The notes beneath the pieces are model-generated. The model was not told the origin of the DNA, did no database searches, and saw only the letters and a list, made by a program, of their open reading frames with translations. From positions 27,346-91,345 of the IMG/VR virus record IMGVR_UViG_3300030110_004304: 64,000 nucleotides of DNA. One strand, given 5' to 3'. A program made the position numbers and the translations under genes. This DNA comes from a virus. Below, piece after piece: positions 215 through 18,306 of the stretch; position 1 is the stretch's first letter, and every line of letters starts with the position of its first letter.

Positions 215-3200
215 ATGGCAATGAAAAAACATAATAACACTTATGGTAAAGGCCTAAATGTTGATACCGCTTTTGATAGCATGCCTGCCAATATGTATAT
301 CGATGCTATGGATGTTAGAATAACAACTGCAGACGGAGAAAGCACAGGGGCTATAACTAATCTTCAAGGTAACGAAGAAGCTTTTAAAATAAACCAAGCC
401 GGTGCAACAGGATTAAAAGAAATAATAGGAGTAGGATTTATTAGAAATATTATAATTCTTTTCTGTGCAGATGATACTGGGACTAATGGTTGGATGTATT
501 ATGTAACTTATGACGAACAAACTAGAAAAATAACTAGTGGAGCTCAGGCTCCTCTTTTGTATGATGGTGATGGAAACCCTAACTTATTAGGTTTCAGCAA
601 AGACTGGCCAATAGAAGCCCAAGGAAGATATGAATCTGATTGCGTACAAAGAATATATTGGACAGATTATAACAACTCACTAAGAAGTTTATTAATTGAA
701 GATTTTACAAGTATTCCAGCTGGAGGATTATCATTAGACATTAGTGTAATTGATATATTTCCTGAAGTAACATACACACAGCCAATATTAACTAATGTTG
801 CTTTTGGGGGAACACTTCTTGCAGGAGAGTACCAATTTGCATATAGACTAATTACAGAAGACGGTAAACAAACTTTAATATCTCCTCCTGGAAACCTAAT
901 ACATCTAACAAGCGACTCAGAAGCTACTAGTACTAGTAGACGATATATGGGAGATCCCAAAGGTACTAATACTAATAAAAGTTTAGAAATTACAATAGAC
1001 ACAAGTGATTATGTAAATAAATTTGAAAGAATAGAATTAATATCAGTATTCTTTGAAGAATATGGGGGCACTCCTTTAGTACAATCTGTCGAAACTCAAG
1101 GAATAGGAGTATTAACTGAAATAAATTTTATTTATACAGGCCAAGAAAACACAATAGTAGATTTACCTTTAGCAGAGTTTGCTATTAAAGTATATCCTTT
1201 TAGCACCTGCAAAACAATGGTCCCTAAAGATAACTCTTTAGTTGTTGCTAATATAAAACAAACTAAGTTTGATATAAACGAATTATTAGAACCAGGAGAG
1301 ACTTTAGATTTAATGACAAAAAGATATAATAGTAGTAGTGAGTTACCTTTTACAGACGGACTAGTTAATCCGCTGGCACTTGTGCCAGGTACTCTTTACG
1401 AAGAAAAAGATGAAGTATTTAATCTTCCTTATAATCTAGATCAACATTGGGAAGGACCTTGGCACGAAGAACAACAATTTAAATATCAAGCTGATGGTTC
1501 TACTATGGGGGGACAATCTTTAGACGATGGTGTGAATCCTTCTAATCTATCCTATAAGTTTGCCCTAAGTCTTGATATAATAGATGACAGTAGTCAACCA
1601 GGTTTAGCAGAATTAACCAATACCTTTCCAAATGAGATTATTAATCTAAATGATGGTTATACGTACACTAATAAAAGTTTTCGCTCTAAAGCATCTCCCT
1701 ACAAAAGTGGATTAACCAGAGGCTATAAAAGAGGAGAAGTTTATCGTTTTGGTGTAGTATTTTATAATAAAAAAGGAGAGTCTTCTTATGTAGAATATAT
1801 TGGTGATATTAAGATGCCTGATATTTCAGAAGAAGCAGGCTATACAACAGTGACCGTTCCTGGTCCTGGAGCTAAAGACTTTTTTCCTATATCTTCAGCT
1901 GCATCTAGTGGTGCTACAGTTCCAAACGATTATACTTATGGTCATGATTTAGGATTAAAAATAGATTTAGATTTTACATCTTGTCCTAGTATATTAGACA
2001 AAATAACTTCTTTCCAAATAGTAAGATGTAAAAGAACAGATGTTGATAAAAGAAGACCCGCTTCTGGTATAATTAAATCATATCATTTTCCAGATATAGG
2101 TTCAAACCCACATTACGATCCTGATCCAGAAGATAGAGAAGGTTATGAATGGGACAGTCCCGATGGAAATATTTTACATTTATATTGGACAAAACCCACT
2201 GGCTTTATGCCATCTGAGAGTGGAAAACCTTTTGCTGGTAGTTGGTATTCTTTTAATAATAATTGGAACACATATCGAAGATTTTCAGCTGATGAAAACT
2301 ATAGTCCAATATATGGAGATTTCTTAGCTTTCTACAGTCCTGAAGTATCTTATAATTTTAACAGACAAAATCTTGAAGGAGCTGGAAAAGCACTTTTAAT
2401 TACAGGTTCATATGCTGACTACGGCCTTATTTGGCAAGGTGCATCATCTACTACTAGATATTATACTAGTACTCTACATGATGAAATTTATGGAACTAAT
2501 CAAAATAATCAAGAATTAGGATGTGACATATGGGAACAATATTTTAAAGTACGAACAACTAATAGAATAGATAGAGAAACCGTAGCTGAACAACCAGATG
2601 GTACTCTAGATACTGTATATGATGGAGGAGCAGGTTATCCAATATCATATAGAGGAATAGAATATGTAAGACAATTTAACAATGCTGGCGTATTCACAGA
2701 TTTTGAAAAGGCTCAAGAAGATGTTGAACGAGGAGATAGAATGAGTAAAATTATAAAAACGTATGGTCCTCTAGTTTCGAGCCCTCCTACTCCTACTTCT
2801 TTTTATATAAGACCTGTTTATGTTTTTGTAGGAAATGAAGGAGCTGTTGGAACAGATGATCCTGATGATTGTCCTTGTGCAGTATCTCAACCAGGTCGTA
2901 GTCTTGGTGGTAATAATTGTGGATATGGAGGAATAGGAAGAGGATCAGTCTGCTTAACAGTGAATACTACTAATATATTTACCAATCCTTATACAAGTAA
3001 TCCCGTTGTTGTTGGATCAACTGGAGTTGCTTTTCCTACAACTCCTACTAATGCTGTTGCTGGATCAGTAACCGATCCATGTTTTGGAGGTCCTAGCACA
3101 TGGACAGGTAGTTTTGGTTATGTTTGGCCAGAGTTTCCTGATCAAAATTTTATCCCCAGTCCTTCAGGCAATGATTTTTTAAACAACATTATGAATACTC

Positions 3201-5083
3201 CAGTAGTAGACGTTATGTTGTTTAAGCAAGAAATTTACGGAGGATATACTAACTCTGCTTTACAGAATAATATATTTGTTCCCTGTTCGCCTGTAGTTAC
3301 AACAGCACCTGTAATATCTAATTTAGAAGTTTACGGAGGAGATACTTTTATAGGAATGTATAGTATGCAAACAAGAAGTATGATTCTAGATGAGTATCCT
3401 TTTCCTAATGGATTTACAGCAGGTAATGATGAGTATAGATATGAAGCCAATGGAGGTTGCACGGAAGCTATTCCAGTAGAAACCCAAGTAAATTTAGACT
3501 TAGCTATGGGAGGTACTTATAAAACTAATTCACAAGCTTATTGGGTCTATTCTGGAGTTGCAGAAATAGAAGGATTCCTTAGACAAGAAGTAGGTAATTT
3601 ATCTGATTCAGGGGGTAGTGGTACTTGGGCTAAAGTAAACGATGCGTATAACAATGCTTATAATCAAGTATACTCAGTAGAGCCTGCAGATAATACTTTA
3701 GGATTTTTCATCAAGCCTGGAAGTGCAACTGGTTGTGGAATAAATGATATTAGAGCATTCTTATCGGATGTTAAGATAAACGAAGAAGAAGTAGATTCTT
3801 GGTCTATATTTAGAGCCAATAATTATTATGATATAGAAGCTCAGTTTGGGCCCATAAATAAAATAGAAAATTGGAGAGACGAAGTATTCTTTTTCCAAGA
3901 TACTGGCGTAGGAAAGTATAGTATAAACCCAAGAGCAGTAACAACAACAGAAGATGGTATACCTACGCAATTAGGTTCTGGACAAGGATTCCAACATCAC
4001 CAATATCTAAGTACTGAAAACGGATCTATACATCAGTGGGCAGTAAAAGCTACAGATACTGGAATATACTACTTCGATGCTATGAATAAAAAGATATTCA
4101 GAATAGGTGGCCAAGGAAACGAGCCTCTTTCAACTATGAAAGGTATGCACGGTTTCTTAGCTAATTTTAATGGAACAGTATTAAGAAGAAAAGAAACTGA
4201 TCAAGCTATAAGTTTAGGAGGAGATAATCCAATACAGAATAGAGGCGTTGTATTTTCTAGAGACCAACAAAACGATGAAGTACTAATGACTTTCTTAGGA
4301 ATGTATAAAGTAGTAGGATTAACTAATAACATTAACTATGAAGCAGGTACTATTGTACAAATAACTCCTGGTGGCGGAGGAACAATACAATATTGGATAG
4401 TGTATGAAAGCTACACAAGTGATCCCGCTGCTTCCTCTCCAGCACTACAAGCAGAACTATCCACTAAAGCTAGTTGGGTAGATACAGATACTAGAGAAGG
4501 TAGGTTATTATATAGTATCTTACAAAAAGGAGATGGAGGAAAAAGTACTTTAGTATTTGATGAGGTTGCCCAAGCATTCTCTTCATTCTATTCTTCTACT
4601 CCAGGACTTTATATAGAAAATAGCAATATTTTAATGAGTGCGAAAAAATCTAAAGAAGGAGATGAGTTTATAGCCTACACTCATAATAAAGGAAAGTACG
4701 GAGAGTTCTATGGAAGTATTGAAGAAAGTAGTATAAGCTTAGTTATAAATCCAGATGCTGATATAAACAAAATACTTAGATTTATAGAATTTGGTTCTCA
4801 GGTAAAAGAAATAGGAGGAGACATAGATAGGAGTACTACTATCACTGCTTTTAGAGTAGAAAACGAGTACCAGGACACTACTAAAACTGCTTACAGCCCA
4901 AGTAATATAAAAAGAAGATTTGATAAATGGAGAGTTAAATTGCCTAGAGATCAGAAAAGTTCTTCAAAAAGAGGACGTTTAAGAAGTACTCATTTTGTTT
5001 TAACTTTGTATTTTAATAACTTAGATAACAAGGAGTTAGTACTTAATAGGATAACTTCTCACTATGATGTACAGGTATACTAA
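215..5083 (+). CDS. crAss-like tail stabilisation/hub protein (P22 gp10-like)
   Basis: 1622 aa with RIYWTDYNN, GYKRGEVYRFGVVFY, FGPINKI...FFQD, YYFDA and IKRRFDKW motifs typical of crAss-like tail stabilisation proteins; lies upstream of the cargo/RNAP genes. Confidence 0.75.
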   Translation: MAMKKHNNTYGKGLNVDTAFDSMPANMYIDAMDVRITTADGESTGAITNLQGNEEAFKINQAGATGLKEIIGVGFIRNIIILFCADDTGTNGWMYYVTYDEQTRKITSGAQAPLLYDGDGNPNLLGFSKDWPIEAQGRYESDCVQRIYWTDYNNSLRSLLIEDFTSIPAGGLSLDISVIDIFPEVTYTQPILTNVAFGGTLLAGEYQFAYRLITEDGKQTLISPPGNLIHLTSDSEATSTSRRYMGDPKGTNTNKSLEITIDTSDYVNKFERIELISVFFEEYGGTPLVQSVETQGIGVLTEINFIYTGQENTIVDLPLAEFAIKVYPFSTCKTMVPKDNSLVVANIKQTKFDINELLEPGETLDLMTKRYNSSSELPFTDGLVNPLALVPGTLYEEKDEVFNLPYNLDQHWEGPWHEEQQFKYQADGSTMGGQSLDDGVNPSNLSYKFALSLDIIDDSSQPGLAELTNTFPNEIINLNDGYTYTNKSFRSKASPYKSGLTRGYKRGEVYRFGVVFYNKKGESSYVEYIGDIKMPDISEEAGYTTVTVPGPGAKDFFPISSAASSGATVPNDYTYGHDLGLKIDLDFTSCPSILDKITSFQIVRCKRTDVDKRRPASGIIKSYHFPDIGSNPHYDPDPEDREGYEWDSPDGNILHLYWTKPTGFMPSESGKPFAGSWYSFNNNWNTYRRFSADENYSPIYGDFLAFYSPEVSYNFNRQNLEGAGKALLITGSYADYGLIWQGASSTTRYYTSTLHDEIYGTNQNNQELGCDIWEQYFKVRTTNRIDRETVAEQPDGTLDTVYDGGAGYPISYRGIEYVRQFNNAGVFTDFEKAQEDVERGDRMSKIIKTYGPLVSSPPTPTSFYIRPVYVFVGNEGAVGTDDPDDCPCAVSQPGRSLGGNNCGYGGIGRGSVCLTVNTTNIFTNPYTSNPVVVGSTGVAFPTTPTNAVAGSVTDPCFGGPSTWTGSFGYVWPEFPDQNFIPSPSGNDFLNNIMNTPVVDVMLFKQEIYGGYTNSALQNNIFVPCSPVVTTAPVISNLEVYGGDTFIGMYSMQTRSMILDEYPFPNGFTAGNDEYRYEANGGCTEAIPVETQVNLDLAMGGTYKTNSQAYWVYSGVAEIEGFLRQEVGNLSDSGGSGTWAKVNDAYNNAYNQVYSVEPADNTLGFFIKPGSATGCGINDIRAFLSDVKINEEEVDSWSIFRANNYYDIEAQFGPINKIENWRDEVFFFQDTGVGKYSINPRAVTTTEDGIPTQLGSGQGFQHHQYLSTENGSIHQWAVKATDTGIYYFDAMNKKIFRIGGQGNEPLSTMKGMHGFLANFNGTVLRRKETDQAISLGGDNPIQNRGVVFSRDQQNDEVLMTFLGMYKVVGLTNNINYEAGTIVQITPGGGGTIQYWIVYESYTSDPAASSPALQAELSTKASWVDTDTREGRLLYSILQKGDGGKSTLVFDEVAQAFSSFYSSTPGLYIENSNILMSAKKSKEGDEFIAYTHNKGKYGEFYGSIEESSISLVINPDADINKILRFIEFGSQVKEIGGDIDRSTTITAFRVENEYQDTTKTAYSPSNIKRRFDKWRVKLPRDQKSSSKRGRLRSTHFVLTLYFNNLDNKELVLNRITSHYDVQVY

Positions 5084-5089
5084 TTAAAA

Positions 5090-8000
5090 ATGGATAAGAT
5101 AAGAAAATATAAACACGGCGGAGAGCCTCTTTCAAATACAAGGAGGATAGAACCTACTGTGTCTTATTTGCACTATTTAAACAACCAGAATGAATTTGCA
5201 TACGGAGGAGAAGTAAACCCGCCAGAAGGAGAAGATTTAGGAATGTCTAAAGAAGATTTTATTAGAAGGGTTAAAACTGGAAAAAGTAGTATACCTACTC
5301 AAGCACTTCAGAATCAAGTAGACTTTTTAAATCACCCTTTCTATCAACAAAATGCTAGAAATGTATGGGGAGAAGATGCTAATCAAAATATAGCAAACCA
5401 AATTGATAGGATGAAGAGTGCTAAAGTAACACTAGAATCCAATTTAGGAAATGCTGCCGGAATGTTTCATCCACCTGGTATCATGAAGGGTAATGAGAGG
5501 GGTCATATAAAACTTTTAGAAAGCACTGATCCGTCTGAAAAACTTCATACTATGGAGCACGAACTAGGACATGCGTCTGATACAGGCAAAGCTTCTCATT
5601 GGTGGGATTATAATGACCCTGCTCGTACATATATAACAGATGACTTTGATAATGTAGTACAAAGGGGTGATGAAGATCCTTTAGCTAAAATGGAACCAGA
5701 ATTTGGAAGTTATTATGATTTAACGCTAACTAATCCATACTATGACTCCCAAGATCCAGATTATTTAAAAGTACCAACAGAATTTAGAACAAGATTAAAC
5801 CATGTTAAAAAATTAATGGCTAATGATAATTTTAACTGGAACGAAAAATCTGCTGAAGAAATTGCTAATTACATGCAAGAAAAAAAATTAGATAATAATA
5901 TAAGCGACGCAGCAAGAAGCGAGTTACAACAGTTTTCACAATACAATCGAGAAGATGTAGATCAGTATCTGGACTATGGCGATGTTTACAGAGATTTTTT
6001 AAGTGAGGAAAATAGAAAAGGTAAAGAAGGAAAAGACTTTAGAAAACTTTGGAGACAAGGTGTTAGAACACCAGAAGAATTTATAAATGCTCACCCGTGG
6101 TATAAAAAAATGTTTCACAAAGAAGAAATAGAACAAATACTAGAAGATAAAGATGGAGATGGTAAAGCTGATTTCGAAATTTTAGATGATTATAAAGGTA
6201 GGCAACAAAACAGAGCGTTTTTAGACAAGGTATTTAAAGAACTTGCTCAAGAAAAGAATATACCAGATAATAGTTACAGAGTAGCTAGAAACGGAGGAAA
6301 GCCTTATCCAGGACCTCCTTATTATCCTTATCACAGTGCAAATCTTAAAGTAGATAAAAGCTACGATAAGAATCATGTACAACCTAGTGTATTTCCTAAT
6401 GGTGGAGAACTAGTTACAATAGGAGATAAGACATATAATACGTCTAGTAAAGAATATAGAAAGTTAGTAGAATCTGGTAAAGTTAAACCGTACACTACAG
6501 ATACTAAATCAGGAATAGGGGCATTTGATTATGGAAACCTTCCAGATTTTGAAGTAACAGCACCTACGCAAGAAGCTGTAGATATGGCTAAAAGTGCTTT
6601 TAATAGAAGTAAACAAGGGCAAGCTAAACAGCAAAACACACAAAATTTTCTAAATAATAACAGATATCGTTATCCTGAAAGTGGTGCTACAAAAGGGATA
6701 GTAGAATCAATGGTAGAAGGAGTTATAGATAATCCTAATAACTTAAGTTATTATCCAGGTGCAGGAGAACTTTATGATGCAGCACATTTAGGATATAGTT
6801 TAAGACAAGGAAATTATGGAGACGCTGCTTTTGATGCAGCTGCATTTACAATTCCTTTTGTAGGAGGAGCCGCAATTAAAAAGTTTGTAAAGCCTTATTT
6901 AAAAAATGCATATAAATACAATCCTTTTGCAACAAATTTAGAATCAAAAATTGCTAAAGAAAATTTATTAGCTCGTCAAATATATGGAGATGAAGCATAC
7001 GAAAACTTTTTAAAACATGGACCAGCAACTGAGTACGGTAAAAATGTACCTAGACATAAACAAATACATGATTGGCTAAATGCTGATGTAGAAGATGTTT
7101 CGATTATAAGCAAGGGGGGAAAGAATGAAGGTAAACTTACAGTCGCTTCTACTATGACAGAAGATAGAAATTTTAAATATCCTTATTTTCAAAAAGGTAA
7201 CTTATTCTTTGGTCCCAATGAAAGAGCATTATATAATGCTGATATGGGTAAAGGTAGAGTAATAATTCCTAAAGATGTCAATGCTAAAAGTTTTTATCCA
7301 GCAGGTGAAACAAGTTTTATCAGAAATGTTGATACTGCTCCAGAATCTGCTGTTAAAAGGTATTCAGGAGAAAAACATATATTATCACCTTTTGACAAAA
7401 ATGCTTTTAATCCTAAAGCTTTTGATGTTTACGAAGAAACTCCTCATTGGTTGATGGGCAATAGAAAAATACAAAGACATGGTGGTCCTACAGATCCTGA
7501 TAAAGAGTATTTAAAAAATTGGAATAAAGCCAGACTAAAAACAGGTAGATTTAATGACCAACTAGGATCCGGAAGAATAGAAGGGCTTAATCAAAATATT
7601 GATGAGGTCGAAAGAGTTTCGAGAGCAGAGATGTCAAAATTAATAGGAGAAAATCCAAATAGTAGAGGAATGTATTATAGAGACCCTGAAAAAGGTATGC
7701 ATACATACTTTTCGGAACCTACTTTTTTACAAGAACTTACTAATTATTTTGGAGGAATGCCCCAAACAAATCTTCACGAATTAACACATGCTATGACAAA
7801 AGCAAGTAGTCATATTCCTGGAGAAGAATCTACTGGCCAAATAAAAGCAATACAAAATATACCTTTAGGAACAGGAGAATACTATGGTTCAAAATATAGT
7901 AAGATGTCGCCGGAAGGTAAATATGACGTAGGGCCTTATGGATATGATGGAGATGCTGAAGAAATTTTAGCACAACTTATGGAATATCGTAAGAATTTTA

Positions 8001-8824
8001 ATGTAGACCCTAATAGAATTTTTACTGAAGATGACATCGAAGAAGTGATGGAAAATGTAAAAAAACAAGGAGCAAGAGGTTTATTCGGTTTAGAGGTATA
8101 TAAGCCTAAAGAACTAATAAGATTAATGAATGAAGTTGCTATGGTAGACGATAAAAAATCAGATATCAATATGGCAAGAAACGGAGGTCCAACAGATCCT
8201 CCAAAAAAAGAATTAGAAATCCAACCAGCTGTTACTTCAACAACTTATGTAGATAAGCCAGTATTTGATAGAAATGCGTTTTCAGCAAAAATAGTTAAAG
8301 AGCTAGGAATAAAGCCGGACACTTCAAATGAAAAATACCACGAAACTGCAAAATCGTATGTAGAAAATGAAAAAGTAATAGATAGAGAACCAATAAGCGG
8401 CCTTAGAAGCTTGCTTCCTTATCCTTGTTATGACTATACATGTGTAGAGCTTCTTAAAGATGCAGATAAAGATATAGGAAGGAACTCTATACCGGGGAAT
8501 ATAAATAATAATAGGCAACTAAGAGAGTATTTATTAAACAACCCTAATTACACTACAGTACATCGTGATAGTACAAAACCTGGTGATTTAATACAATATT
8601 ATGATCCTGCTAGTAATAATTATCCTTATCATGCGGGTATAGTTGATACAGATTCTTCGTATATTAGCAGTGGTGGGGGCACGCCTTATTTTCCGATTGG
8701 TAATCCTGTAGAGGTTAAAGGGCTAAAAACTTATAATACTTTAGACGGAGATCAACCAGGTACTGAGTGGTATGGTGAGTCAAAAGATCCTTATTATGCT
8801 TATAGATATATAGAACAAGATTAA
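5090..8824 (+). CDS. Mosaic virion cargo-like polyprotein: two zincin (HExxH) modules, a pre-toxin/ART-like module and a C-terminal NlpC/P60-like module
   Basis: HELGH (5558-5572) and HELTH (7775-7789), each followed by a downstream Glu; C..C...PGDLIQY...HAGIV at the C-terminus; six xxGG punctuation motifs. Confidence 0.65.
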   Translation: MDKIRKYKHGGEPLSNTRRIEPTVSYLHYLNNQNEFAYGGEVNPPEGEDLGMSKEDFIRRVKTGKSSIPTQALQNQVDFLNHPFYQQNARNVWGEDANQNIANQIDRMKSAKVTLESNLGNAAGMFHPPGIMKGNERGHIKLLESTDPSEKLHTMEHELGHASDTGKASHWWDYNDPARTYITDDFDNVVQRGDEDPLAKMEPEFGSYYDLTLTNPYYDSQDPDYLKVPTEFRTRLNHVKKLMANDNFNWNEKSAEEIANYMQEKKLDNNISDAARSELQQFSQYNREDVDQYLDYGDVYRDFLSEENRKGKEGKDFRKLWRQGVRTPEEFINAHPWYKKMFHKEEIEQILEDKDGDGKADFEILDDYKGRQQNRAFLDKVFKELAQEKNIPDNSYRVARNGGKPYPGPPYYPYHSANLKVDKSYDKNHVQPSVFPNGGELVTIGDKTYNTSSKEYRKLVESGKVKPYTTDTKSGIGAFDYGNLPDFEVTAPTQEAVDMAKSAFNRSKQGQAKQQNTQNFLNNNRYRYPESGATKGIVESMVEGVIDNPNNLSYYPGAGELYDAAHLGYSLRQGNYGDAAFDAAAFTIPFVGGAAIKKFVKPYLKNAYKYNPFATNLESKIAKENLLARQIYGDEAYENFLKHGPATEYGKNVPRHKQIHDWLNADVEDVSIISKGGKNEGKLTVASTMTEDRNFKYPYFQKGNLFFGPNERALYNADMGKGRVIIPKDVNAKSFYPAGETSFIRNVDTAPESAVKRYSGEKHILSPFDKNAFNPKAFDVYEETPHWLMGNRKIQRHGGPTDPDKEYLKNWNKARLKTGRFNDQLGSGRIEGLNQNIDEVERVSRAEMSKLIGENPNSRGMYYRDPEKGMHTYFSEPTFLQELTNYFGGMPQTNLHELTHAMTKASSHIPGEESTGQIKAIQNIPLGTGEYYGSKYSKMSPEGKYDVGPYGYDGDAEEILAQLMEYRKNFNVDPNRIFTEDDIEEVMENVKKQGARGLFGLEVYKPKELIRLMNEVAMVDDKKSDINMARNGGPTDPPKKELEIQPAVTSTTYVDKPVFDRNAFSAKIVKELGIKPDTSNEKYHETAKSYVENEKVIDREPISGLRSLLPYPCYDYTCVELLKDADKDIGRNSIPGNINNNRQLREYLLNNPNYTTVHRDSTKPGDLIQYYDPASNNYPYHAGIVDTDSSYISSGGGTPYFPIGNPVEVKGLKTYNTLDGDQPGTEWYGESKDPYYAYRYIEQD

Positions 8825-8834
8825 AATTAATGTT

Positions 8835-11800
8835 ATGGCAAAAAGAAAGAAAATTACTAAATATCCACACGGAGGACCACATAATCCACCAGCACTTTCT
8901 CAACAAGAGTTGGCTCAGGTAAACCAAGCATTAGCTGCAGGGAATACTGCGAATATGAACCAATTAATGTCGCCAGGTTTTTTACAAGGAAGACATACTG
9001 ATTTTAATAAAGACGAATTTAAAGGTAGCCCTTTCTATGGATTTCCAGAATTTTCAGGAAATGTTACAGCAACAGGAAATAAGACTGGATGGGGTTTTGA
9101 TTCTACACCACATAATAATTTAACAACTGCTGATTTATATGACCAAAATTTTATAAGCAATATAAACAGTAGTCCTTTGTTTGGGGTAAAAAATTATAAT
9201 GAATTAACAGATGAAAAGGGCCAAAAATTCTATGCACCTAACTGGCAATTTAAAGGAGCTCCTACTGCTCCCACATTATACGATTACCATACAGGAACAG
9301 GTAATCGAAACATGCCATACACAGGACCTCTAACAGCAAACCAATGGCAAAAAAATCCAGGTAATCGAAACCCTAATAAAGCTCAAGCTTTAAAACCATT
9401 GAGTAATCGACAAAAAAATTTAGCGTACAAAAACCAATGGATGTATAATGATGCAGATGGTAATGTTGTAACTTATGGTGAACTTAAAGGAAAGGATAAA
9501 AGAAAGCCTCAAATTGCTCAAGAAGAGTATACTACTTATTTTAAAGGAGATAAAGAAATAAATGAAGGTCAGTATAATAGAGGACTAAGCTCTAATGAAA
9601 AAAAAACGAATCAATATAATACACAATTAACTGATTATAATGACGCACTGACACAACTAAAAACAAGCATGTTTCCTACTACACCAGTTGATCCAATAAA
9701 TACAAGTACTTTAGTACCAGTTACTAAAAGATACGGAGGGCGTAAAAAATATAATAACGGAGGAGAACTTACAGAAGAAGAAAAGTGGAACGCTAAAAGA
9801 GAAGCTGAGTATAAAAAGAAGACTGCAGAGTTTGAAAAAAAGACTGCAGAGTTAGATGCTAAATTTGAAGCTGATAAACTAGGAAATGCAGAATACAAAA
9901 AACAATTGGCTGCATTAGAAAAAGAAAAAACAAGAGTTCAGAAAGTAAGAGATAATGTTCTAAAGACAGCAGAAGATTTGAATCAAAAGAAATTAAATTT
10001 ATTTCCTAATACTGAAGATGTTTATAGTGATGAGCAGTACGCTTTAAATCCTAATTTAGAAAACTACGAAGAACTGCAATGGTATCTTAATTCGTTGAAT
10101 AGTGGTTATCCTATTGGAGACGACGGTGAGACAGACTTTGGTGCTCCCCTTAAAACAAAACAAGAGCACCGAGAGGTAATGAAAAACATGCCTCAAGAGT
10201 TCAGAGATATTTTTCCAAGGCAAGGTAATTATGATTTATATATGGCTAATAAATTTAATCCAGACGGCACTTTAGATGAGGACAATTACACATACCACTC
10301 TGGCAGAGGCTTATATTGTACTCCAGGTTCTACAGATTGTTATAGAAGAGCCGGTGCTACAGACATGCCTATTGTGAGTGGAAATCAGGGTTTTGCTAAA
10401 AGATCTAAAGAAGGAAAAATTCCTTTTCAACTAATCTCTGATAGTGAAGCACAACCAGGAGATATAGGATTAAAATATGGTTATGTTTCTAAAAATTATG
10501 CTAAACCAGAGCTAGGAAAAACTAATAGAGTCCATCATACTACAATTGCTAAAGAGCTTGGTGATGTTAATAGTAAAGGTGAGATTACTAATATGATAGC
10601 ATACTCTCCTAATGATGGTGCCAGAGAGAGTTTTAGGCCAGTACCAGAATATGCTGATTCTCCGAAGAATGTGCCTGGAGAAGATAGTGATATTATGTTC
10701 TACAGATACGTAGGACAAACTCCCCAGATGCAAGCAAATATAGATAATCTTACAGCACAAGGTTATAATAAAGAAGCACAACAACAACTAGCTATGATGC
10801 CTACAATGGGACCAGCTTATGTAGGAGGAAATACTCCAGTACGTACTCCTCAAGCAATAAATCCTATTGAAGGAATGGATAAAAGACAAACAAGGCAGTA
10901 TCTAAAAAATCCTATGGGACAATATAATTACGATCAGTACTTACAATTACAAAACAACGATATGGTTACTAATAACAAATGGGGAGGAACAGTACCTCCT
11001 GCAGAATTTAAAAACGGTGGTAAAAAAGGCGGCGGAGATTGTGGATGTGGTAAACCTAAACCAGGAACTAAACCTACAAAATCTTCTACTAGCTACCAAA
11101 GCTTTGCTAACGGGGGTCCTAAAGACCCTCCTACACAAGAGGAGTTTGATATGATGGACCAAAAAAGTAAAGAAGCTCTTTCTAAGCAGTATCCAGGTAT
11201 GTACAAAATAAATGCTGGCACACCTACACAAGAACAATTGAACCAATTTAGAGCTCAAAATATGATGCAAATGCAGCCTACAAATATGGAACTTCCTCTC
11301 CCTGCAGCAGAAAGCACTTATGTTAATACGCCTATGATAGGCAACTATGCTAAAGGAGGCTATATGGGAATAAACCCTGACCACAAAGGATATTGCACTC
11401 CTATGAGCAAGTCTACATGTACTCCACGTAGAAAAGCACTAGCTAGAAGATTAAAGCCAGGAGGAGATTTATACAGAGGAAAGAAAGAAAATGGTGGTTA
11501 TAATTATGCTGACTCTGGTTTTAATAGTGGAATGCCTGCAGGAGTTACTCAAAGAAGTTATTTAGACTACATCAACGGAGGCCCTTTAATGGCTAATGGC
11601 ACTGTGGTATATGATAACGGAGGAGGTATGGAACAGTATTCTAGCGTACCTGTAGATAGTTTTGATACTGGCGGTAGTCACGAATCTAATCCTTTAGGAG
11701 GAATCCCACAAGGTCCTAATGCATTAGTAGAAGAAGGTGAGAAAAAAATAAAAATCCCAGGAACTGAAGAGAGCTTTATAGTATCTCCTAAAATTATTTT

Positions 11801-14800
11801 AGATAAAGCCACAGCAGAAGAATTTGATTTACCTAAAAAATACATAGGTAAAGATATGGTTAAAATATTCGATAGTGTATTAAGAGTTAACTCTAGAAGA
11901 GAAGGTGATACTATAGAAGAGCATACTAAAGAATTAGAGATTATGCCATTTATAGAAGCCCATACATTATTAACTGAAAGAAAGAACGCTGAAGAAGAAG
12001 CGGCTAAACAAGCAGCATTTACTGAAGACATGGATAACATGATGACTGAGTATCCTGAGTACATGCAAGCTTTAATGAGTCAACAACAACCTCAACAACA
12101 AGGACCGTCTCCAGAAGAACAAGCTATGATGGAACAACAAATGATGGCTCAACAACAAGGAATGCCTCAAGGTCCCCCTCAAGGTAGTATGCCTATGATG
12201 GCTAAAGGAGGAATGATTAGGCGTGCTGATGGTTCTTATAGTAGAAGAGGGCTGTGGGATAACATTAGAGCTAACAAAGGTTCTGGTAAAAAACCTACGA
12301 AAGAAATGCTTAAGCAAGAAAAAAAGATTAAAAGTATGCGTTCAGGAGGAAAGATGTGTTATAATTATGGAGGAGTAGAAACCCCTGAAGCATACGGATA
12401 CCATGACTTTGCTCAAGAAGGCTATTCATCTATGCCTGCAGGAGTCACAGATGCAAGCACTGCAACAAATACAAATAGTGGATCTGGGTGGGGAACTGCA
12501 GCAGCAAACGCAGCAGTGGCTATAGGACAAGGTGCGGCTACCAACGATGATTACCTTTCAAGCGAAGCGGCTATGAATCAAAGTGCTGATCAAATAATAA
12601 GTATGATTCCTGGATATGGAGCATTTCACGGATTAGCTTCGGGAGCTTCTGATATGGCAAGAGAGCAATTAGGAGAAGAGCAGTATGATTCAGAAGGAAA
12701 TCCAACTGGATATAAGAAATACGATAATCAAGCAGAAAAAGCAGGAGATGTTTGGCTAAAACCAGAACATGAATACCATACACAAAATATAGCTGCTATT
12801 AAAGAGGGTGAGTCTGGAGCATGGGGAAGATTAGCAATGGGATTAGTACCAGGAATGAATCAAACATACACTATGTTAGCAGATGAAAATATAAAATCAC
12901 AAGCAGCAACTAGAAATGGAGGTAACATACATGCTTATGGAGGCCAGGTAAAAGATTATGACTTTGGTGCAGTAATGAGAGGCGTGGGCACAGGATTAGA
13001 AACTGCTGCTCCATTATTATCTAAAATACCAGTATATGGTACTCTAGTAGCTACTGCTGCAGGAGGACTTGGTGCAGGTCTAGGTAATGTAGGAACAGGA
13101 GCAGACTTTAAAGAAGTTGCTAGAGATGTTGCTTTCGGTGCCGGGAAAGGTGCTGCTTCAACTGTACCTGGTTTAGGTGCAGTAGTATCAGGAGCAGAAT
13201 CAGTAGTAGATTCTAAGATAGAAGATGCTAGTGAGAAAAGAAGTAAGGAATTAATTGAACAAGGTGGTGAAGCTGCTGAGAATGAATTAAAAAGACAAAA
13301 AACAGATGCCACAGTAAATAAAGTTATCGGACTAGCGGGAACAGCAACAAGCTTAGGAATGAATGCTGCAGACCAAGCTGCTGGTGAAGCTTCCGACGCA
13401 TTTGGGGAAGCTGCTTTAGAAGGTACAGCAGACTTAGCAAGTTATGCTCCTGAAGGAACAACTACTGGAATGGTAGACGGAGCAATGGTATCTATGGCTC
13501 CCGGTACTATGGCTTATGGTGGATTTATGAATAGAAACTTCAGAAATGGAGGTAGATACAGAACATTTGCTAATGGAGGTCCAGTAGATTCTTACGCAGA
13601 TATTCCAGCAGAAGATTTAGAATACATCAAAAAAATCATAGCATATGAAAGAACTCATGGAGCAGAAGATGGTACTGGATTAACAGATGCTAAATGGAGT
13701 AAAAACAAAGTTGCTTCTATGGCAGGGGCTACTGATGATGAAAAAGCTGCTTTATTTATTTATAATACATATGCTGCAGATAAATCAGGAATGCCTCTTG
13801 ATTTAAGAATGAGAGCTGTAGATATGCATTTGAATAGTGAAGACCCTACAGGTTCTATGTTAGTTGCAGCAGGTCTTATTAGTCCTGCTGAAAAAGTAAA
13901 GTTACTTTATACAGCAGATAACAAGGGTAAGTTAAAGTACGATCCAGCTAAAGCAGAAGCTTTGTTAAAAGAATGGGAAAAAACAGATGAAGGTGTGAAA
14001 AAATTAGCTGCTCTTGACAAGGCTAAAAAAGATCCTAGATTTATAAAAGCTTTTGATTCAGAAAGAATGAGGAGTTATAAAAATACAACTAATAAAGCTG
14101 GGGCATTTGATAACACTTGGCGTCCTAGAGTACACATTTTTGATGAAGGTTTTGATTATGATGAGTATCAAAATATGCTAACGACTGTATCTGATTTTGA
14201 TAAGAAAATTGCTGGTTTAGATAATACATCTGCTACTTATGAAGACGATTTAAAAATTCTTCAAGAACAGAGAAACGATGCTGCGGAAGATATAAATCTT
14301 TTTGAGTATCAAGAAGATCCTAATGACCCAACAAAATTCACGTATACAGGTATTGGTCAAGAAGATGTGGATTACTTAGCAAGTGATGATGAAGGAGAAG
14401 AAGAAGATCCTCAAGATCCTTTTGAAAAAGCTGATCAAGATGATTATACAGCACCGGATGTTACAGATCTTAAGCCTAAGTTTAAGGACTTAGCAATTGG
14501 AGCTGCTCCTGCACTATTCGATATAGGAAGAGGTCTTCTTGAAAAAGATCAACCTTTAGAACTAAGTAGAATAAACGAAATTAGTAGTCCTCGTATTAAT
14601 TTAGACGAAGCACAAAAAGCACAAGACAGAGCATTCGCTGCCCAACAAAGTGCTATTAGAAACGCTGCTCCAGGAGGAGGAGCCTATCTAGCTAATCAAC
14701 AAATGGCATATCAAAACTGGATGCAGAATGCTGCTCTACTAAGAGAAAGAGAAGAACAGCTTAATGCACAGATTGCTGGCCAAGACTTAAGAACCAATGC

Positions 14801-15035
14801 AGGTATTCAAGCACAAAACATAAGATTAGATGCTAAAGAACAAGATTGGAGAGCTAAACAAAAAGCAGCTAAGATGGATCTAATAGGGTCAGGAATGGGA
14901 TACTTAGGAGATATGGCTGCAGAAAATAGAAAGAATAAATTTATGGTTCAGCAATATTTCCCAGCAATAGCTCCAGTTATGTCCGACTATATGCAATGGC
15001 AAAAAGAAAAAGAAAAAAACGAAGAAACTGATTAA
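8835..15035 (+). CDS. Large mosaic virion cargo-like protein with NlpC/P60-like, GH108-like, small basic and Gly/Ala-rich modules
   Basis: 2066 aa; crAss-like GGSHESNPLGGIPQG...LVEEGE block; about 19 xxGG motifs; Gln/Ala-rich helical C-terminus. Confidence 0.6.
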   Translation: MAKRKKITKYPHGGPHNPPALSQQELAQVNQALAAGNTANMNQLMSPGFLQGRHTDFNKDEFKGSPFYGFPEFSGNVTATGNKTGWGFDSTPHNNLTTADLYDQNFISNINSSPLFGVKNYNELTDEKGQKFYAPNWQFKGAPTAPTLYDYHTGTGNRNMPYTGPLTANQWQKNPGNRNPNKAQALKPLSNRQKNLAYKNQWMYNDADGNVVTYGELKGKDKRKPQIAQEEYTTYFKGDKEINEGQYNRGLSSNEKKTNQYNTQLTDYNDALTQLKTSMFPTTPVDPINTSTLVPVTKRYGGRKKYNNGGELTEEEKWNAKREAEYKKKTAEFEKKTAELDAKFEADKLGNAEYKKQLAALEKEKTRVQKVRDNVLKTAEDLNQKKLNLFPNTEDVYSDEQYALNPNLENYEELQWYLNSLNSGYPIGDDGETDFGAPLKTKQEHREVMKNMPQEFRDIFPRQGNYDLYMANKFNPDGTLDEDNYTYHSGRGLYCTPGSTDCYRRAGATDMPIVSGNQGFAKRSKEGKIPFQLISDSEAQPGDIGLKYGYVSKNYAKPELGKTNRVHHTTIAKELGDVNSKGEITNMIAYSPNDGARESFRPVPEYADSPKNVPGEDSDIMFYRYVGQTPQMQANIDNLTAQGYNKEAQQQLAMMPTMGPAYVGGNTPVRTPQAINPIEGMDKRQTRQYLKNPMGQYNYDQYLQLQNNDMVTNNKWGGTVPPAEFKNGGKKGGGDCGCGKPKPGTKPTKSSTSYQSFANGGPKDPPTQEEFDMMDQKSKEALSKQYPGMYKINAGTPTQEQLNQFRAQNMMQMQPTNMELPLPAAESTYVNTPMIGNYAKGGYMGINPDHKGYCTPMSKSTCTPRRKALARRLKPGGDLYRGKKENGGYNYADSGFNSGMPAGVTQRSYLDYINGGPLMANGTVVYDNGGGMEQYSSVPVDSFDTGGSHESNPLGGIPQGPNALVEEGEKKIKIPGTEESFIVSPKIILDKATAEEFDLPKKYIGKDMVKIFDSVLRVNSRREGDTIEEHTKELEIMPFIEAHTLLTERKNAEEEAAKQAAFTEDMDNMMTEYPEYMQALMSQQQPQQQGPSPEEQAMMEQQMMAQQQGMPQGPPQGSMPMMAKGGMIRRADGSYSRRGLWDNIRANKGSGKKPTKEMLKQEKKIKSMRSGGKMCYNYGGVETPEAYGYHDFAQEGYSSMPAGVTDASTATNTNSGSGWGTAAANAAVAIGQGAATNDDYLSSEAAMNQSADQIISMIPGYGAFHGLASGASDMAREQLGEEQYDSEGNPTGYKKYDNQAEKAGDVWLKPEHEYHTQNIAAIKEGESGAWGRLAMGLVPGMNQTYTMLADENIKSQAATRNGGNIHAYGGQVKDYDFGAVMRGVGTGLETAAPLLSKIPVYGTLVATAAGGLGAGLGNVGTGADFKEVARDVAFGAGKGAASTVPGLGAVVSGAESVVDSKIEDASEKRSKELIEQGGEAAENELKRQKTDATVNKVIGLAGTATSLGMNAADQAAGEASDAFGEAALEGTADLASYAPEGTTTGMVDGAMVSMAPGTMAYGGFMNRNFRNGGRYRTFANGGPVDSYADIPAEDLEYIKKIIAYERTHGAEDGTGLTDAKWSKNKVASMAGATDDEKAALFIYNTYAADKSGMPLDLRMRAVDMHLNSEDPTGSMLVAAGLISPAEKVKLLYTADNKGKLKYDPAKAEALLKEWEKTDEGVKKLAALDKAKKDPRFIKAFDSERMRSYKNTTNKAGAFDNTWRPRVHIFDEGFDYDEYQNMLTTVSDFDKKIAGLDNTSATYEDDLKILQEQRNDAAEDINLFEYQEDPNDPTKFTYTGIGQEDVDYLASDDEGEEEDPQDPFEKADQDDYTAPDVTDLKPKFKDLAIGAAPALFDIGRGLLEKDQPLELSRINEISSPRINLDEAQKAQDRAFAAQQSAIRNAAPGGGAYLANQQMAYQNWMQNAALLREREEQLNAQIAGQDLRTNAGIQAQNIRLDAKEQDWRAKQKAAKMDLIGSGMGYLGDMAAENRKNKFMVQQYFPAIAPVMSDYMQWQKEKEKNEETD

Positions 15036-15045
15036 AAAATAAAAG

Positions 15046-18000
15046 ATGGCAAATCCATATTCAACTCCTTTAACAGCGAGATATAAGTATAAACCACTAG
15101 ATGTCAGTGTGTTAGCACAACCACTTGCTCAACAACAGCAGCAATATGACTTAACAGAACAAGCCGTAGATGCTGCTCAGTTTGAGTTAGCAGGCCTATC
15201 TCCAGATAGTGAAAGAGCTAAAGAAATAAAAGCAGTTTTAGGTGAGCAAGTAGGAGATATTTCTGAAGGACTGTTGTCCAAAAGAGATTATAGAACAGCT
15301 GCTAAAAATCTAAATAAACTAAATAAGTTTTATAATAGTAACGAAGAGATAAAAGCTATTAAAGGAAACTATAATGCTTGGCAAGACGCTATTAAAGAGC
15401 AGAAGAAAAGATTAGTTGGAAAAAATGCAGACTTAAGTCAAAAACAATATGAAGAGTGGTATCAAAAATCTATGATAGAGTTTCGTGACAAAGGAGGTAC
15501 TGACTTCAGAGACGGAGATTATAACACCATAAATACAATGGGAAGAATGTCCGACATGGACAAAGAAATACAGGATTATGCATATAAATTAGCTAATGCT
15601 AGGCCGGATGAAAAGAGAACTATATTAGGAAAAATCCAAGATGTAGCAGGACATAGATTCAAAGATCAAGTAATAGATACAATAATTACTTATCAAAACA
15701 AGGATGACATTACTGCTGAGCTCTACAATCAATTATCTAGTTCAGATAGATTTAAAAGTTGGTTAGATGAGAAAGCAGAATATAACCATTTCTTCCAAAG
15801 TTATGGGAATCCAGAATATGCTGCTGACATGTATGGAAAATATCATGCACATTTAGATGAACAAGAAGAGAATATAATTAAATCGAAAGCAAAGAAAAAA
15901 CAAAAAGAAGCAGCATTAGCAAATGTTGAAGAGCAAAGAAGAAGTTTAACAGAAGGTTATGCTAAAAGCAAAGGAGATTATATTAAAGGTTTGGTTAAAA
16001 AAGCCCACACACAAGATTACTTAATGGGAGTATCTTCTAGTATGGCTGATGTATTTAACTTTCAAGATATAGAATATGATCGTACTTTCGTAGATGATTT
16101 TGAAGCAAAAGAAAATTATAAAAGGGCAATGAAAGCTGCTGATGATGCTCAAAATATGTTTTTCTCAGTAAGTCCTGATACACACGTTGCTCCATTAGGA
16201 CCAAATGGAGAAGTTTTAACAGGAAAAGAAGATCCTGGAGAGCTTATACAAAACTTAATTGGAACATCTTCTACTACAGGAATGAATTGGACTCCTGGTA
16301 CTGGTACTGGTTTTAAAGGATTAGAAACTAATATATCAGGAACTCAAGTAGCTTTAAATAATTTACAATTAAAAATAAATCCTTTAAAGCGTCAAGCTAA
16401 AAGAGATCTTCAAGCTGCTAAAACAGAAGAAGAAAGACAAACTATAATTAATAATTATAATAGAGATAATGCAGACTTATTCGATAAACAAAAAAGACTA
16501 CAAAAAGCTTTATCAGAACAGAAAGCAGTATATACAAGAGAAACTGATAGAGTAAAAATTAATATAAAGAATAATTTAAATAGGTTAATAGCAGAAGGAA
16601 GAAAAAAAGGACAAGATGTTTCTTGGTATACTGAGCAATTAAATCTTATAGAAAACAATATTTCAGATCCTTGGAATCTTTCTATTTCACAAAATAAAGG
16701 GAAAGTTAGTATATCTGGTTACTTAAAAGGGATGCAGGTAGATAGTAAATCTAAATATGATAATAGTCCATTATTAGGTGATTTAAGTTTTGCACAGCCT
16801 GGTGTTCCCGGATATGATGTAATAAGATTAGATGGTATAACTAGTGCTTCTCAAGGTACTAATCTTTCAGGAGTTTTAAGCCCAGGAACTGTTGATGCAG
16901 GTGTTGCTGCGGGAGCCCTCTTATTAGATTATGCTACATCCGATTCAGGAGGAGACATTATTCCTGTACAAAGGATGGCTGGAGAAGATGATAGAAAACA
17001 AATACAGAATATTAAAAATAATAACAAAGAAGCAATACTTGAATTTGATGTTTCCAGCTCTGACTTTGATCATGATTTTGCAGTACTTCCTTATAGCCAA
17101 TCAGGTTTCGTACAACAAGCTCACGATAGAAAAAATTCTTGGATAAAAATGTTAGAAGAAGAAGGATATACAATTGTTCAAGGACCACGATCTAATAGTG
17201 ATAAGCATGCTTATTTAGATGATATAGTAGTACACCATTTAAGAGCTGTTCCTAATAGCCTAATAAAAAAGCAAAAAGAATATGTATCAAACCCAAATAA
17301 AAATCAAATGGCTATTCTACAAAAAGGGGTCAGTGAAGAATTATACAATCAACAAATGAGTAGAAGTACTCAAGATCAAGGGATTATATTAAATGATGCA
17401 TCTAATTCAGTATCAGGAGGAGTATTTAACCAATTAGTAGATTATCAACAACAAGATACTAATAACGCTAATACTCATAGATTTTATATGAATGAAAATG
17501 GAAGTTATAGAATGGCTAGTGATGGAATGAATAATGAAGAACCTAATCTAAATTTATACGAAGCTAGAGAAGTAGTAGGTACATCTACTGTAGACGGTAA
17601 ACAAATCCCCCTAATTAGATATGCTTTAAAACAAGATTTAACAGAAGGCCAAATAATAAATGAAATTTCTAGAAGTGGTAATGTAAAAGCACAGACAGGA
17701 GGAATGAGTGCTGATGAAAAAAGAGTGTGGAGTGCTACTAAAATGGGACTTTTAACTGATGATTGGAGAAATGTGTTTAGTACTGATGTAGTAGTAGGAA
17801 CTCTAGGAACTAGTTTCGCTCTAGGAGAAGCTGTTAAAAATACTAGAAAAACTTTTGAAAATATAGCAGAATATGGAGACGGAGCACAAACTGCTAACGC
17901 TTTAACACAATTAGCTCAAACAGAAATTTCTTTAGATGGTAAAATGCAAGATAGACTTGCTTTAGACTATATAGATTTATTTCAAGGAACAACAAACGAA

Positions 18001-18306
18001 ATAAGAAATCAAGGTACTCCTTTTGCATTCCCAGACGGTTCTTTAGGAAGATATGATATTATTTATAGAAGCACAGGGGGAGGAGGAGTTACTCAAGAAA
18101 TTACTTTAGTAGATGCTAAAAAATATCCTAATGAAACCGTAGGAAAAGAAATACTTACACAGAGTCTAAGTAACGTAATGAACTCTGATGTTCCTGCCTT
18201 TATGAGATCTTATGAATTACTGTATGGAATCAACACTAATCAAGCGTATATGAATAATATACTAAATAGAGGACAGAATATTGATGTAGCTAGCGTAGGA
18301 AGATAG
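15046..18306 (+). CDS. Large virion cargo/ejection-type protein upstream of the RNAP
   Basis: 1086 aa; MANPYS...YKPL...QQQYD N-terminus and helical composition; position matches crAss-like internal proteins. Confidence 0.5.
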   Translation: MANPYSTPLTARYKYKPLDVSVLAQPLAQQQQQYDLTEQAVDAAQFELAGLSPDSERAKEIKAVLGEQVGDISEGLLSKRDYRTAAKNLNKLNKFYNSNEEIKAIKGNYNAWQDAIKEQKKRLVGKNADLSQKQYEEWYQKSMIEFRDKGGTDFRDGDYNTINTMGRMSDMDKEIQDYAYKLANARPDEKRTILGKIQDVAGHRFKDQVIDTIITYQNKDDITAELYNQLSSSDRFKSWLDEKAEYNHFFQSYGNPEYAADMYGKYHAHLDEQEENIIKSKAKKKQKEAALANVEEQRRSLTEGYAKSKGDYIKGLVKKAHTQDYLMGVSSSMADVFNFQDIEYDRTFVDDFEAKENYKRAMKAADDAQNMFFSVSPDTHVAPLGPNGEVLTGKEDPGELIQNLIGTSSTTGMNWTPGTGTGFKGLETNISGTQVALNNLQLKINPLKRQAKRDLQAAKTEEERQTIINNYNRDNADLFDKQKRLQKALSEQKAVYTRETDRVKINIKNNLNRLIAEGRKKGQDVSWYTEQLNLIENNISDPWNLSISQNKGKVSISGYLKGMQVDSKSKYDNSPLLGDLSFAQPGVPGYDVIRLDGITSASQGTNLSGVLSPGTVDAGVAAGALLLDYATSDSGGDIIPVQRMAGEDDRKQIQNIKNNNKEAILEFDVSSSDFDHDFAVLPYSQSGFVQQAHDRKNSWIKMLEEEGYTIVQGPRSNSDKHAYLDDIVVHHLRAVPNSLIKKQKEYVSNPNKNQMAILQKGVSEELYNQQMSRSTQDQGIILNDASNSVSGGVFNQLVDYQQQDTNNANTHRFYMNENGSYRMASDGMNNEEPNLNLYEAREVVGTSTVDGKQIPLIRYALKQDLTEGQIINEISRSGNVKAQTGGMSADEKRVWSATKMGLLTDDWRNVFSTDVVVGTLGTSFALGEAVKNTRKTFENIAEYGDGAQTANALTQLAQTEISLDGKMQDRLALDYIDLFQGTTNEIRNQGTPFAFPDGSLGRYDIIYRSTGGGGVTQEITLVDAKKYPNETVGKEILTQSLSNVMNSDVPAFMRSYELLYGINTNQAYMNNILNRGQNIDVASVGR

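Follow-up and report, generated by a model that had tools for sequence, protein, structure and literature searches.

No phages of the human gut outnumber the crassviruses, whose way of storing and injecting several megadaltons of protein is still an open question. In crAss001 the cargo block consists of the genes of the muzzle (gp44) and of the cargo proteins C1 (gp45) and C2 (gp46), followed by those of the RNA-polymerase proteins (PMC10172136). In another described class of virion-delivered proteins, the polyvalent proteins, the domain met most often is a zincin-like metallopeptidase, with a predicted role in processing the chain; the study that described them defined neither a junction motif nor a cleavage motif (PMC5512222), whereas in the proteins described here the joints share one conserved peptide. 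These proteins are encoded by two adjacent open reading frames (ORFs), A (5090-8824) and B (8835-15035), of the virus record IMGVR_UViG_3300030110_004304 in IMG/VR. All positions refer to a stretch of 64,000 nucleotides (the window), which is the right-hand 64 kb of a complete genome of 91,345 bp with direct terminal repeats. The genome is assigned to Crassvirales, and by their sequence A and B are cargo-type proteins of a crAss-like phage. Both are punctuated by a peptide with a Gly-Gly core, which we call the seam. As a short linear motif it is real and is conserved among C1-type cargo proteins, and it is apparently undescribed: we found no literature description tying crassvirus cargo to a Gly-Gly motif, and the structural study of crAss001 mentions neither the seam motif nor Gly-Gly, cleavage or proteolysis (PMC10172136). 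Our results support the view that the seam is a selected mark of the joints between exchangeable cassettes in virion cargo proteins.

An earlier note on this DNA had listed 24 such pentapeptides. All of them are present, six of six in A and 18 of 18 in B, and the coordinates 6284-6298, 6392-6406, 7472-7486 and 8174-8188 are exact. As the note had also said, each of the two proteins opens with a copy, which stands behind a basic leader of 6-9 residues. The pattern [FYMWH]-x-[NYHKSW]-G-G occurs 14 times in B against 0.68 expected (P 3e-14) and three times in A against 0.36 expected (P 0.006; both composition-based Poisson), far above background, and this is repeated in independent homologues. 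The pattern was defined post hoc, and the P values are taken to survive any reasonable correction. The flanking giant ORFs indeed show no motif series, with one match in total across four: there is none in the muzzle protein, ORF C or ORF E and a single one in ORF D (4210 amino acids). In the whole 91,345-bp genome, A and B hold 17 of the 21 matches. Plain GG is barely enriched (about 1.5-fold above expectation); thus the signal sits in the context and not in the glycine content.

A position table of 554 GG sites from 24 cargo proteins gave the consensus M(-5), F/Y/M(-3), A/K(-2), N/Y(-1), G, G, x, M/L/I(+2). Hydrophobic residues alternate around GG at -5, -3 and +2, and by the position table most of the information lies N-terminal to GG. 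Among 59 HMMER representatives (at most 50% identity, sharing a cassette with A) the spacing from seam to seam is 6-12 residues in a quarter of cases. Pro directly follows GG at 6 of the 24 sites. The P-x-[DN]-P-[PD] element that had been noted behind GG is real at four sites (B 13, B 760, A 798 and A 1032), and a fifth such element, behind A 39, reads E-V-N-P-P.

The motif is enriched in most of 15 B homologues. In 11 related IMG/VR loci (L001-L011; homologous proteins are labelled P00xx, and crAss001 is L012 and L015) it was nearly confined to the ORFs that separate the muzzle gene from a conserved C-like gene, which are either one giant ORF (up to 3667 amino acids) or three ORFs. In the 59 representatives [FYMW]-x-x-G-G occurs 199 times, with 50.8 expected, and its mirror-image control 62 times against the same expectation. 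The C1 proteins of gut Steigviridae show a weaker enrichment (pooled 18 vs 5.5, P 2e-5) and their C2 proteins none. The motif pattern is kept between C1 proteins sharing less than 30% identity, and the N-terminal seam copy is conserved at residues 10-21 across Crassvirales C1 proteins. Between B and an 84%-identical relative (P0003), 86 of 90 seam residues are identical, compared with 281 of 346 in the flanks (Fisher P 3e-4). Codons differ freely between seam copies, which indicates selection on the peptide and not on the DNA; a DNA-level recombination signal was rejected for the same reason. On these results, the motif is family-wide, better conserved than its flanks and selected at the protein level. 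Asn-specific chemistry, i.e. deamidation or Asn cyclisation, was set aside, since Asn occupies only about half of the -1 positions.

The seams coincide with points of exchange. Homology blocks of A most often end on GG 402, 438, 798 and 1032, and its cassettes are found in dozens of different architectures. In the hit-weighted breakpoint test 63 of the 173 internal ends in A lie within 8 residues of a seam (17.5 expected, P 0.006), whereas the cluster-collapsed test was not significant (4/37 vs 3.8 expected), and near residue 604 there is a much-used breakpoint without a seam. Both tests reached significance for B, with 39 of 91 ends (12.7 expected) and 12 of 47 clusters (6.5 expected, P 0.015). 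In addition, a basic mini-cassette of 45 amino acids in B is missing from P0003, and the indel runs exactly from seam to seam. Copies of this cassette (12213-12335, B 1127-1167) are also present, at 58-79% identity, in two large proteins that are otherwise unrelated, P0014 and P0016; it is thus a very mobile bead. In AlphaFold 2 (AF2) models of A and B the seams lie in coil with a predicted local distance difference test (pLDDT) score below 50, beside confident domains; the exception is the seam copy that abuts the CARG1 domain (pLDDT about 50). Asn-Gly beta-hairpin turns are weakened as a candidate by the coil predicted at every seam, and only weakened, as the models have low confidence there. 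The breakpoints, the seam-to-seam indel and the location in linkers support the earlier proposal that the motif delimits exchangeable cassettes. The breakpoint tests upheld it for B in both forms and for A in the hit-weighted form, not in the cluster-collapsed one. The note had further placed the motifs between recognisable domains. This holds for the block ends in A, and its second zincin is supported by fold; of the other labels, GH108-like is a lead only, and NlpC/P60 (in both proteins) and 'toxin-like' found no support from Pfam, PDB sequences or fold models.

The features of ORF A are as follows:
5108-5209, plus strand: N-terminal seams YKHGG (5108-5122) and FAYGG (5195-5209)
5210-6283, plus strand: candidate zincin cassette ('zincin-1', HExxH at A residue 157), closed by ARNGG at 6284-6298; homologues end at A 390-404
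6299-6406, plus strand: Pro/Tyr-rich mini-cassette of 36 amino acids (A 404-439), ending in FPNGG at 6392-6406; copies in relatives
6407-7486, plus strand: cassette earlier called 'toxin-like', ending in QRHGG at 7472-7486; about 35 representatives align to A 545/600-800
7487-8188, plus strand: zincin-like cassette ('zincin-2', HExxH at A residue 896), ending in ARNGG at 8174-8188; from fold and conservation
8189-8821, plus strand: C-terminal cassette, earlier called 'NlpC/P60' without support; conserved only in close relatives, poor model

Neither the whole of A nor its pieces matched a Pfam or PHROG family, and ten stand-alone homologues of A cassettes had no Pfam family, bar one PG_binding_1. 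For zincin-1 the HExxH motif points to a candidate zincin. Zincin-2 was modelled within A 799-1244: residues 799-1017 reach pLDDT 80-93, and the linker that holds its seam stays below 40. Zincins make up almost all of the top VIA rows, among them neprilysin, ECE-1 and PepO (Z 6.0-6.2), PPEP-2 (5.4) and lethal factor (5.3), where a Z below 8 means moderate support. H98, E99 and H102 are conserved in at least 90% of 32 aligned sequences, and at least 12 architectures that otherwise differ have A-x-x-G-G at the end of this block. The model thus supports a zincin-like peptidase fold for this cassette.

No other piece of A is shared as widely as the Pro/Tyr-rich mini-cassette, which is absent from B. 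Copies 59-81% identical to it were found in L001, L002, P0006-P0010 and P0019; P0004 and P0005 contain only its C-terminal 23 amino acids (78-83% identical). In the C1 proteins of relatives it is N-terminal (residues 6-41 or 48-84), right behind the first seam. Since the same bead is found in A here and in C1 there, beads move between the two genes, and A appears to hold part of what elsewhere is the N-terminus of C1.

ORF B contains the following features:
8862-8876, plus strand: N-terminal seam YPHGG, followed by PHNPP
9726-9764, plus strand: tandem seams KRYGG and YNNGG
10974-11117, plus strand: seams NKWGG, FKNGG and FANGG, the last followed by PKDPP; helices behind FANGG have pLDDT 70-86
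11346-11498, plus strand: seams YAKGG and KENGG around a Cys-rich basic mini-module
11568-11675, plus strand: seams YINGG, YDNGG and FDTGG ahead of the portal-binding domain, corresponding to GG 427, 434 and 447 of gp45
11652-12008, plus strand: CARG1 domain, the portal-wing-binding domain of C1 (PF25725; AF2 pLDDT 76-91)
12198-12374, plus strand: seam MAKGG, the basic mini-cassette of 45 amino acids, and seams MRSGG and YNYGG; seam-to-seam indel
12909-12944, plus strand: tandem seams TRNGG and HAYGG before Gly/Ala-rich hydrophobic helices
13509-13580, plus strand: triple seam MAYGG, FRNGG and FANGG
13581-14234, plus strand: cassette with a GH108-like (muramidase) lead (B 1582-1800), from protein-language-model matches

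The family crAss_CARG1 (PF25725) matches B at residues 940-1058 with 27.8 bits in the whole protein (cut-off 27) and 30.9 bits in the fragment, which identifies B as a homologue of C1; the homologues of B carry this domain too. A Foldseek search with the CARG1 model returned 7qog_M as the best match, a weak one (E 0.8, target TM 0.45, 121 columns, 25% identity). Apart from muzzle and CARG1, no family came up in Pfam and PHROG scans of the muzzle protein, of A and B and of pieces of these two, and PDB sequence searches with A, B and both 'NlpC/P60' cassettes gave no match. For B 1582-1800 the best named protein-language-model matches are GH108 clusters (scores 0.84-0.88), and there is no Pfam match. 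Relatives of B have M15, lysozyme, GH19 or DUF2272 domains in place of those of B. The AF2 model of B 700-1640 is confident only for CARG1 and for a small helical unit behind FANGG.

At the level of the locus the window contains:
215-5083, plus strand: muzzle (tail gatekeeper) gene (Pfam crAss_MUZ, E 1.5e-148), no seam motif
5090-8824, plus strand: ORF A, 1244 amino acids, mosaic cargo protein of at least five cassettes joined by seams (from its translation and homology-block ends)
8835-15035, plus strand: ORF B, 2066 amino acids, expanded C1 (gp45) homologue with 18-19 seams (from Pfam crAss_CARG1, homologues P0003-P0013 and gene order)
15046-36127, plus strand: downstream cargo genes C, D and E, without seam series (motif counts 0, 1, 0), serving as negative controls
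15046-18306, plus strand: ORF C, 1086 amino acids, after the C1 gene
18343-30975, plus strand: ORF D, 4210 amino acids, fusion of zincin and RNA polymerase (HExxH at residue 1668, DFDID at residue 3028)
30968-36127, plus strand: ORF E, 1719 amino acids

The crAss_MUZ match identifies the locus as the crassvirus cargo block, and the block upstream holds the genes of the crassvirus major capsid protein and of ring proteins 1, 2 and 3/4. In the order muzzle, A, B, C, D (with DFDID), B lies between the muzzle gene and the genes of the C2-like and virion RNA-polymerase proteins; the order muzzle, C1, C2-like, RNA polymerase is that of crAss001, DAC15, IAS virus, cr128_1 and Dulem virus 41. Several relatives have no counterpart of A, and C1 directly follows the muzzle gene (L002). 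With A, this genome has one more mosaic cargo protein, inserted between muzzle gene and C1. Most likely A and B are packed into the particle and injected; their delivery into the host with the DNA is suggested by homology to the crAss001 cargo.

ORF D joins a zincin-type HExxH (near nucleotide 23344) and the catalytic DFDID of RNA polymerase (near nucleotide 27424) in one chain. The two regions are separate proteins in phi14:2 and crAss001, and their fusion in ORF D has no seam series; the zincin domain that ORF D joins to virion RNA polymerase is described in the literature as conserved in crAss-like phages. The N-terminus of ORF C (M-A-N-P-Y ... Y-K-Y-K-P-L-G) is kept in all related loci and has no Pfam family. 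The protein is twice as long as gp46, contains the string DFDHD at residue 673, and is presumably the counterpart of C2. For ORF E the PHROG matches are a 'virion structural protein' (E 7e-26) and, over residues 523-623, an exonuclease (E 2e-8); the ORF contains a single GG dipeptide where about six are expected.

In one clade of the related loci (L004, L006, L010 and L011) the cargo array is split into three ORFs. These begin a few residues before a conserved D-P-P-K element, which in the fused proteins follows a seam. The C1 ORF of the split arrays opens directly with three seams and CARG1; the ORFs without CARG1 hold 0-2 copies, which is near chance. A P-x-D-P-P element stands near the N-termini of the split-array ORFs with no GG ahead of it.

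The C1 protein of crAss001 allows the seams to be located in a particle. gp45 contains at least five hydrophobic-x-x-GG copies that flank or lie within its two ordered segments. The barrel-bound helix 214-245 has GG 209-210 ahead of it, GG 562-563 follows the segment 425-552, and GG 427, 434 and 447 are inside this portal-bound segment, a model of which was built in the cryo-EM density (PMC10172136). The chain as deposited contains 126 modelled residues, and the three copies appear uncut in the solved structure. We also re-analysed the published matrix-assisted laser desorption/ionization (MALDI) peak lists of crAss001 virion gels by peptide-mass fingerprinting (Shkoporov 2018, source data of PMC6235969). 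Bands 3-9 were resolved as gp50+gp47, gp49+gp44, the portal gp20, gp26+gp22, gp22+gp25, gp25 and gp23, and for the giant RNA-polymerase proteins gp47, gp49 and gp50 the matched peptides span nearly the full length. gp45 was never above chance in any gel band of 70 kDa or more, a weak hint that the full-length protein may be scarce in crAss001 virions. gp44 was found with gp34 in the top two bands (listed as above 300 kDa), which suggests a muzzle complex resistant to sodium dodecyl sulfate.

Tentatively, we infer that the joint is left uncut in the virion. As the chain is threaded out, the Gly-Gly would serve as a swivel and the hydrophobic residues as grips, so that the beads stay independent and exchangeable. 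A and B would form the 'first-out' cargo array of the crAss-like phage. Its beads would be independently folding or docking units, such as the portal-binding CARG1, peptidases of the zincin type, what is probably a muramidase, small basic or Pro-rich peptides and hydrophobic helices rich in Gly/Ala. Each joint would have a disordered linker, with the recurring M-x-[FYM]-[AK]-[NY]-G-G-x-[MLI] as its short linear motif. Its Gly-Gly could keep neighbouring beads structurally independent, and beads could unfold and refold singly while the chain passes through portal and tail; the flanking hydrophobic positions may provide a weak, repeated grip on a transit partner, possibly the channel lining, the portal wing or other seams. 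With the same seam on every bead, beads could be gained, lost and moved between proteins without disturbing the rest. The alternation of hydrophobic residues is as expected of a peptide bound in extended form, and spacings of 6-12 residues suit multivalent weak contacts. In gp45 the two ordered segments are beads flanked by seams, which is in line with this reading. Several points weigh against this interpretation. No partner of the seam is known, and a passive hinge would not need so specific a pattern. In gp45, seams 209 and 562 fall outside the ordered density and hence are not stably docked in the mature virion, and the crAss001 gel spectra show no full-length gp45 at 70 kDa or above. In the split arrays there are 1.7-2.5 seams per 1000 amino acids, compared with 3.3-5.1 in the fused ones, and the ORF ends have neither seams nor GG; this would also fit a signal that is needed only where beads are fused, e.g. 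a cleavage site.

Nevertheless we favour an uncut hinge or handle, as a plausible if unsettled reading, over cleavage at the seam, which we consider rather doubtful. The earlier note had proposed a GG-processed polyprotein system, a claim that found no support as worded, given that no GG-type or HK97-type prohead protease was found, the Pro behind GG and the uncut copies in gp45. In a modified form, the seams would be processing sites that are cut when exposed, in the particle or after ejection, freeing the beads as effectors. The cutter could be a packaged metallopeptidase (the zincin of ORF D or the two zincin cassettes of A) or a host envelope protease, and seams buried in folded or docked regions would stay uncut. 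Possibly, though we think it unlikely, hydrophobic-x-[N/Y]-G-G is cut only during or after ejection, and the C1 array is an 'effector polyprotein' that is packed as a single chain and yields a dozen separate envelope-active and host-directed factors; the seams would then be the first defined processing code for a phage-injected polyprotein. Such a role would suit seams that are exposed, disordered and present at every joint, with their information mostly on the N-terminal side of GG and, at the start of A and B, a short basic leader ahead of them. It would also suit the smaller number of seams in split arrays, whose ORFs start about where the fused forms have seams. The cargo block contains three HExxH domains (A 157, A 896 and ORF D 1668), and zincin-2, with its zincin fold, always ends in a seam. 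Yet no C48, C5, C39 or S78 protease was found in the complete genome. Six-frame searches of it with PF02902, PF00770 and PF03412 gave no match at E <=1, with a divergent or host enzyme still possible; PF04586 (HK97-type prohead protease) had no match either, the T4-type S77 family not being part of the search, and a scan of the 19 ORFs of the structural block found no peptidase family. The zincins of A were rejected as an obligatory cognate protease, as a general rule, since the seam-rich arrays of L001-L011 have no homologue of zincin-1 or zincin-2. The fused polyprotein for which the literature expects cutting is that of ORF D, and it has no seam series; tandem sites 6-12 residues apart would free tiny peptides. 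Pro just after GG, as at a quarter of our sites, blocks ubiquitin/SUMO-type GG proteases and is unfavourable for the known GG-specific ones. Cleavage by their own zincins has already been proposed for crAss-like virion polyproteins (bioRxiv 10.1101/2020.03.07.982082) and for polyvalent proteins (PMC5512222), and the tail-located part of gp45 fits the tail volume only as a fragment or as a threaded chain (PMC10172136); on the other hand three seams lie inside a single modelled segment of this protein (PMC10172136). The undetected full-length gp45 would agree with cutting, but this gel evidence is weak, as the 2018 gel-identified list omits gp45 and also the seamless gp46.

The remaining explanations are less probable than cleavage. 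One is a capsid- or tail-targeting tag, whose copies bind a component of the procapsid, portal or ring and so load the cassettes; we regard it as improbable. The conserved N-terminal copy at residues 10-21 of Crassvirales C1 proteins, the three copies ordered beside the portal wing in gp45 (PMC10172136) and the avidity of tandem copies would agree with it. However, the C2 and RNA-polymerase proteins, including crAss001 gp46 and gp47, and ORFs C, D and E are without the motif, so that it is not the general loading signal, and the general packaging tag that had been suggested for these cassettes is disfavoured. Moreover, it is the beads of gp45 that are docked, its seams 209 and 562 being absent from the ordered density, and the near-chance copy numbers in split-array ORFs without CARG1 do not fit a tag. 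Slightly less probable still, and purely an analogy with eukaryotic low-complexity domains, is that the seams act as 'stickers' of a Q/M/G/N-rich disordered protein, which would self-associate into a dense, DNA-free cargo zone near the portal. An aromatic residue beside Gly, regular intervals and long disordered Q/M/P/G-rich stretches are in line with this, as is the discrete cargo zone of crAss001 (PMC10172136), but the motif is more specific than a simple aromatic-Gly sticker and is missing from co-packaged cargo. Least probable of all is a motif without a function of its own, which would be a scar left by recombination, or a by-product of composition in linkers that have spread along with the cassettes. 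Cassettes do travel with their seams. The conservation tests disfavour this explanation, in that seams are better conserved than their flanks, codons differ between copies, the mirror-image control is not enriched and the pattern lasts between C1 proteins less than 30% identical.

One seam peptide at each joint of the first-ejected cargo offers a concrete handle on the question of protein storage and injection. It can be used for mutation, tagging, mass-spectrometry searching and for parsing giant unannotated ORFs into functional units, and it explains the swapping of cell-wall hydrolases, peptidases and small peptides between and within cargo genes.

Gly-Gly sites are cut by the adenovirus protease, by African swine fever virus (ASFV) pS273R, by C39 leader peptidases and by Ulp/deubiquitinase (DUB) enzymes. 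The seam resembles these sites in the hydrophobic residue a few positions before GG and in its exposed position, as in segments of virion precursors. It differs in that no such protease was found encoded and Pro is enriched right behind GG; compared with adenain, the aromatic residue of the seam lies one position further from GG than P4. Polymorphic toxins have pre-toxin demarcation motifs, VENN in CdiA and PxxxxDPxGL in Rhs, which like the seam are short conserved peptides at the exchange point of variable cassettes. However, they occur once per protein before a single C-terminal toxin, whereas the seam stands at every joint, often in tandem, and in a particle protein.

A and B resemble the polyvalent proteins, in which, too, a single polypeptide delivered by the virion unites many disparate domains (Iyer et al. 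2017, PMC5512222): architectures vary among relatives, and A has zincin-like HExxH domains. Unlike in polyvalent proteins, the payload here is mainly directed to the cell envelope. The C1 protein gp45 of crAss001 (PF25725; PDB 7QOG; Bayfield et al. 2023, PMC10172136) is like B in that its gene lies behind the muzzle gene, and in its portal-binding domain and beads-on-a-string layout. Compared with gp45, B is 2.5 times longer and has about 18 seams and extra enzyme-like cassettes, and in this genome a second seam-bearing protein, A, is placed between the muzzle gene and C1.

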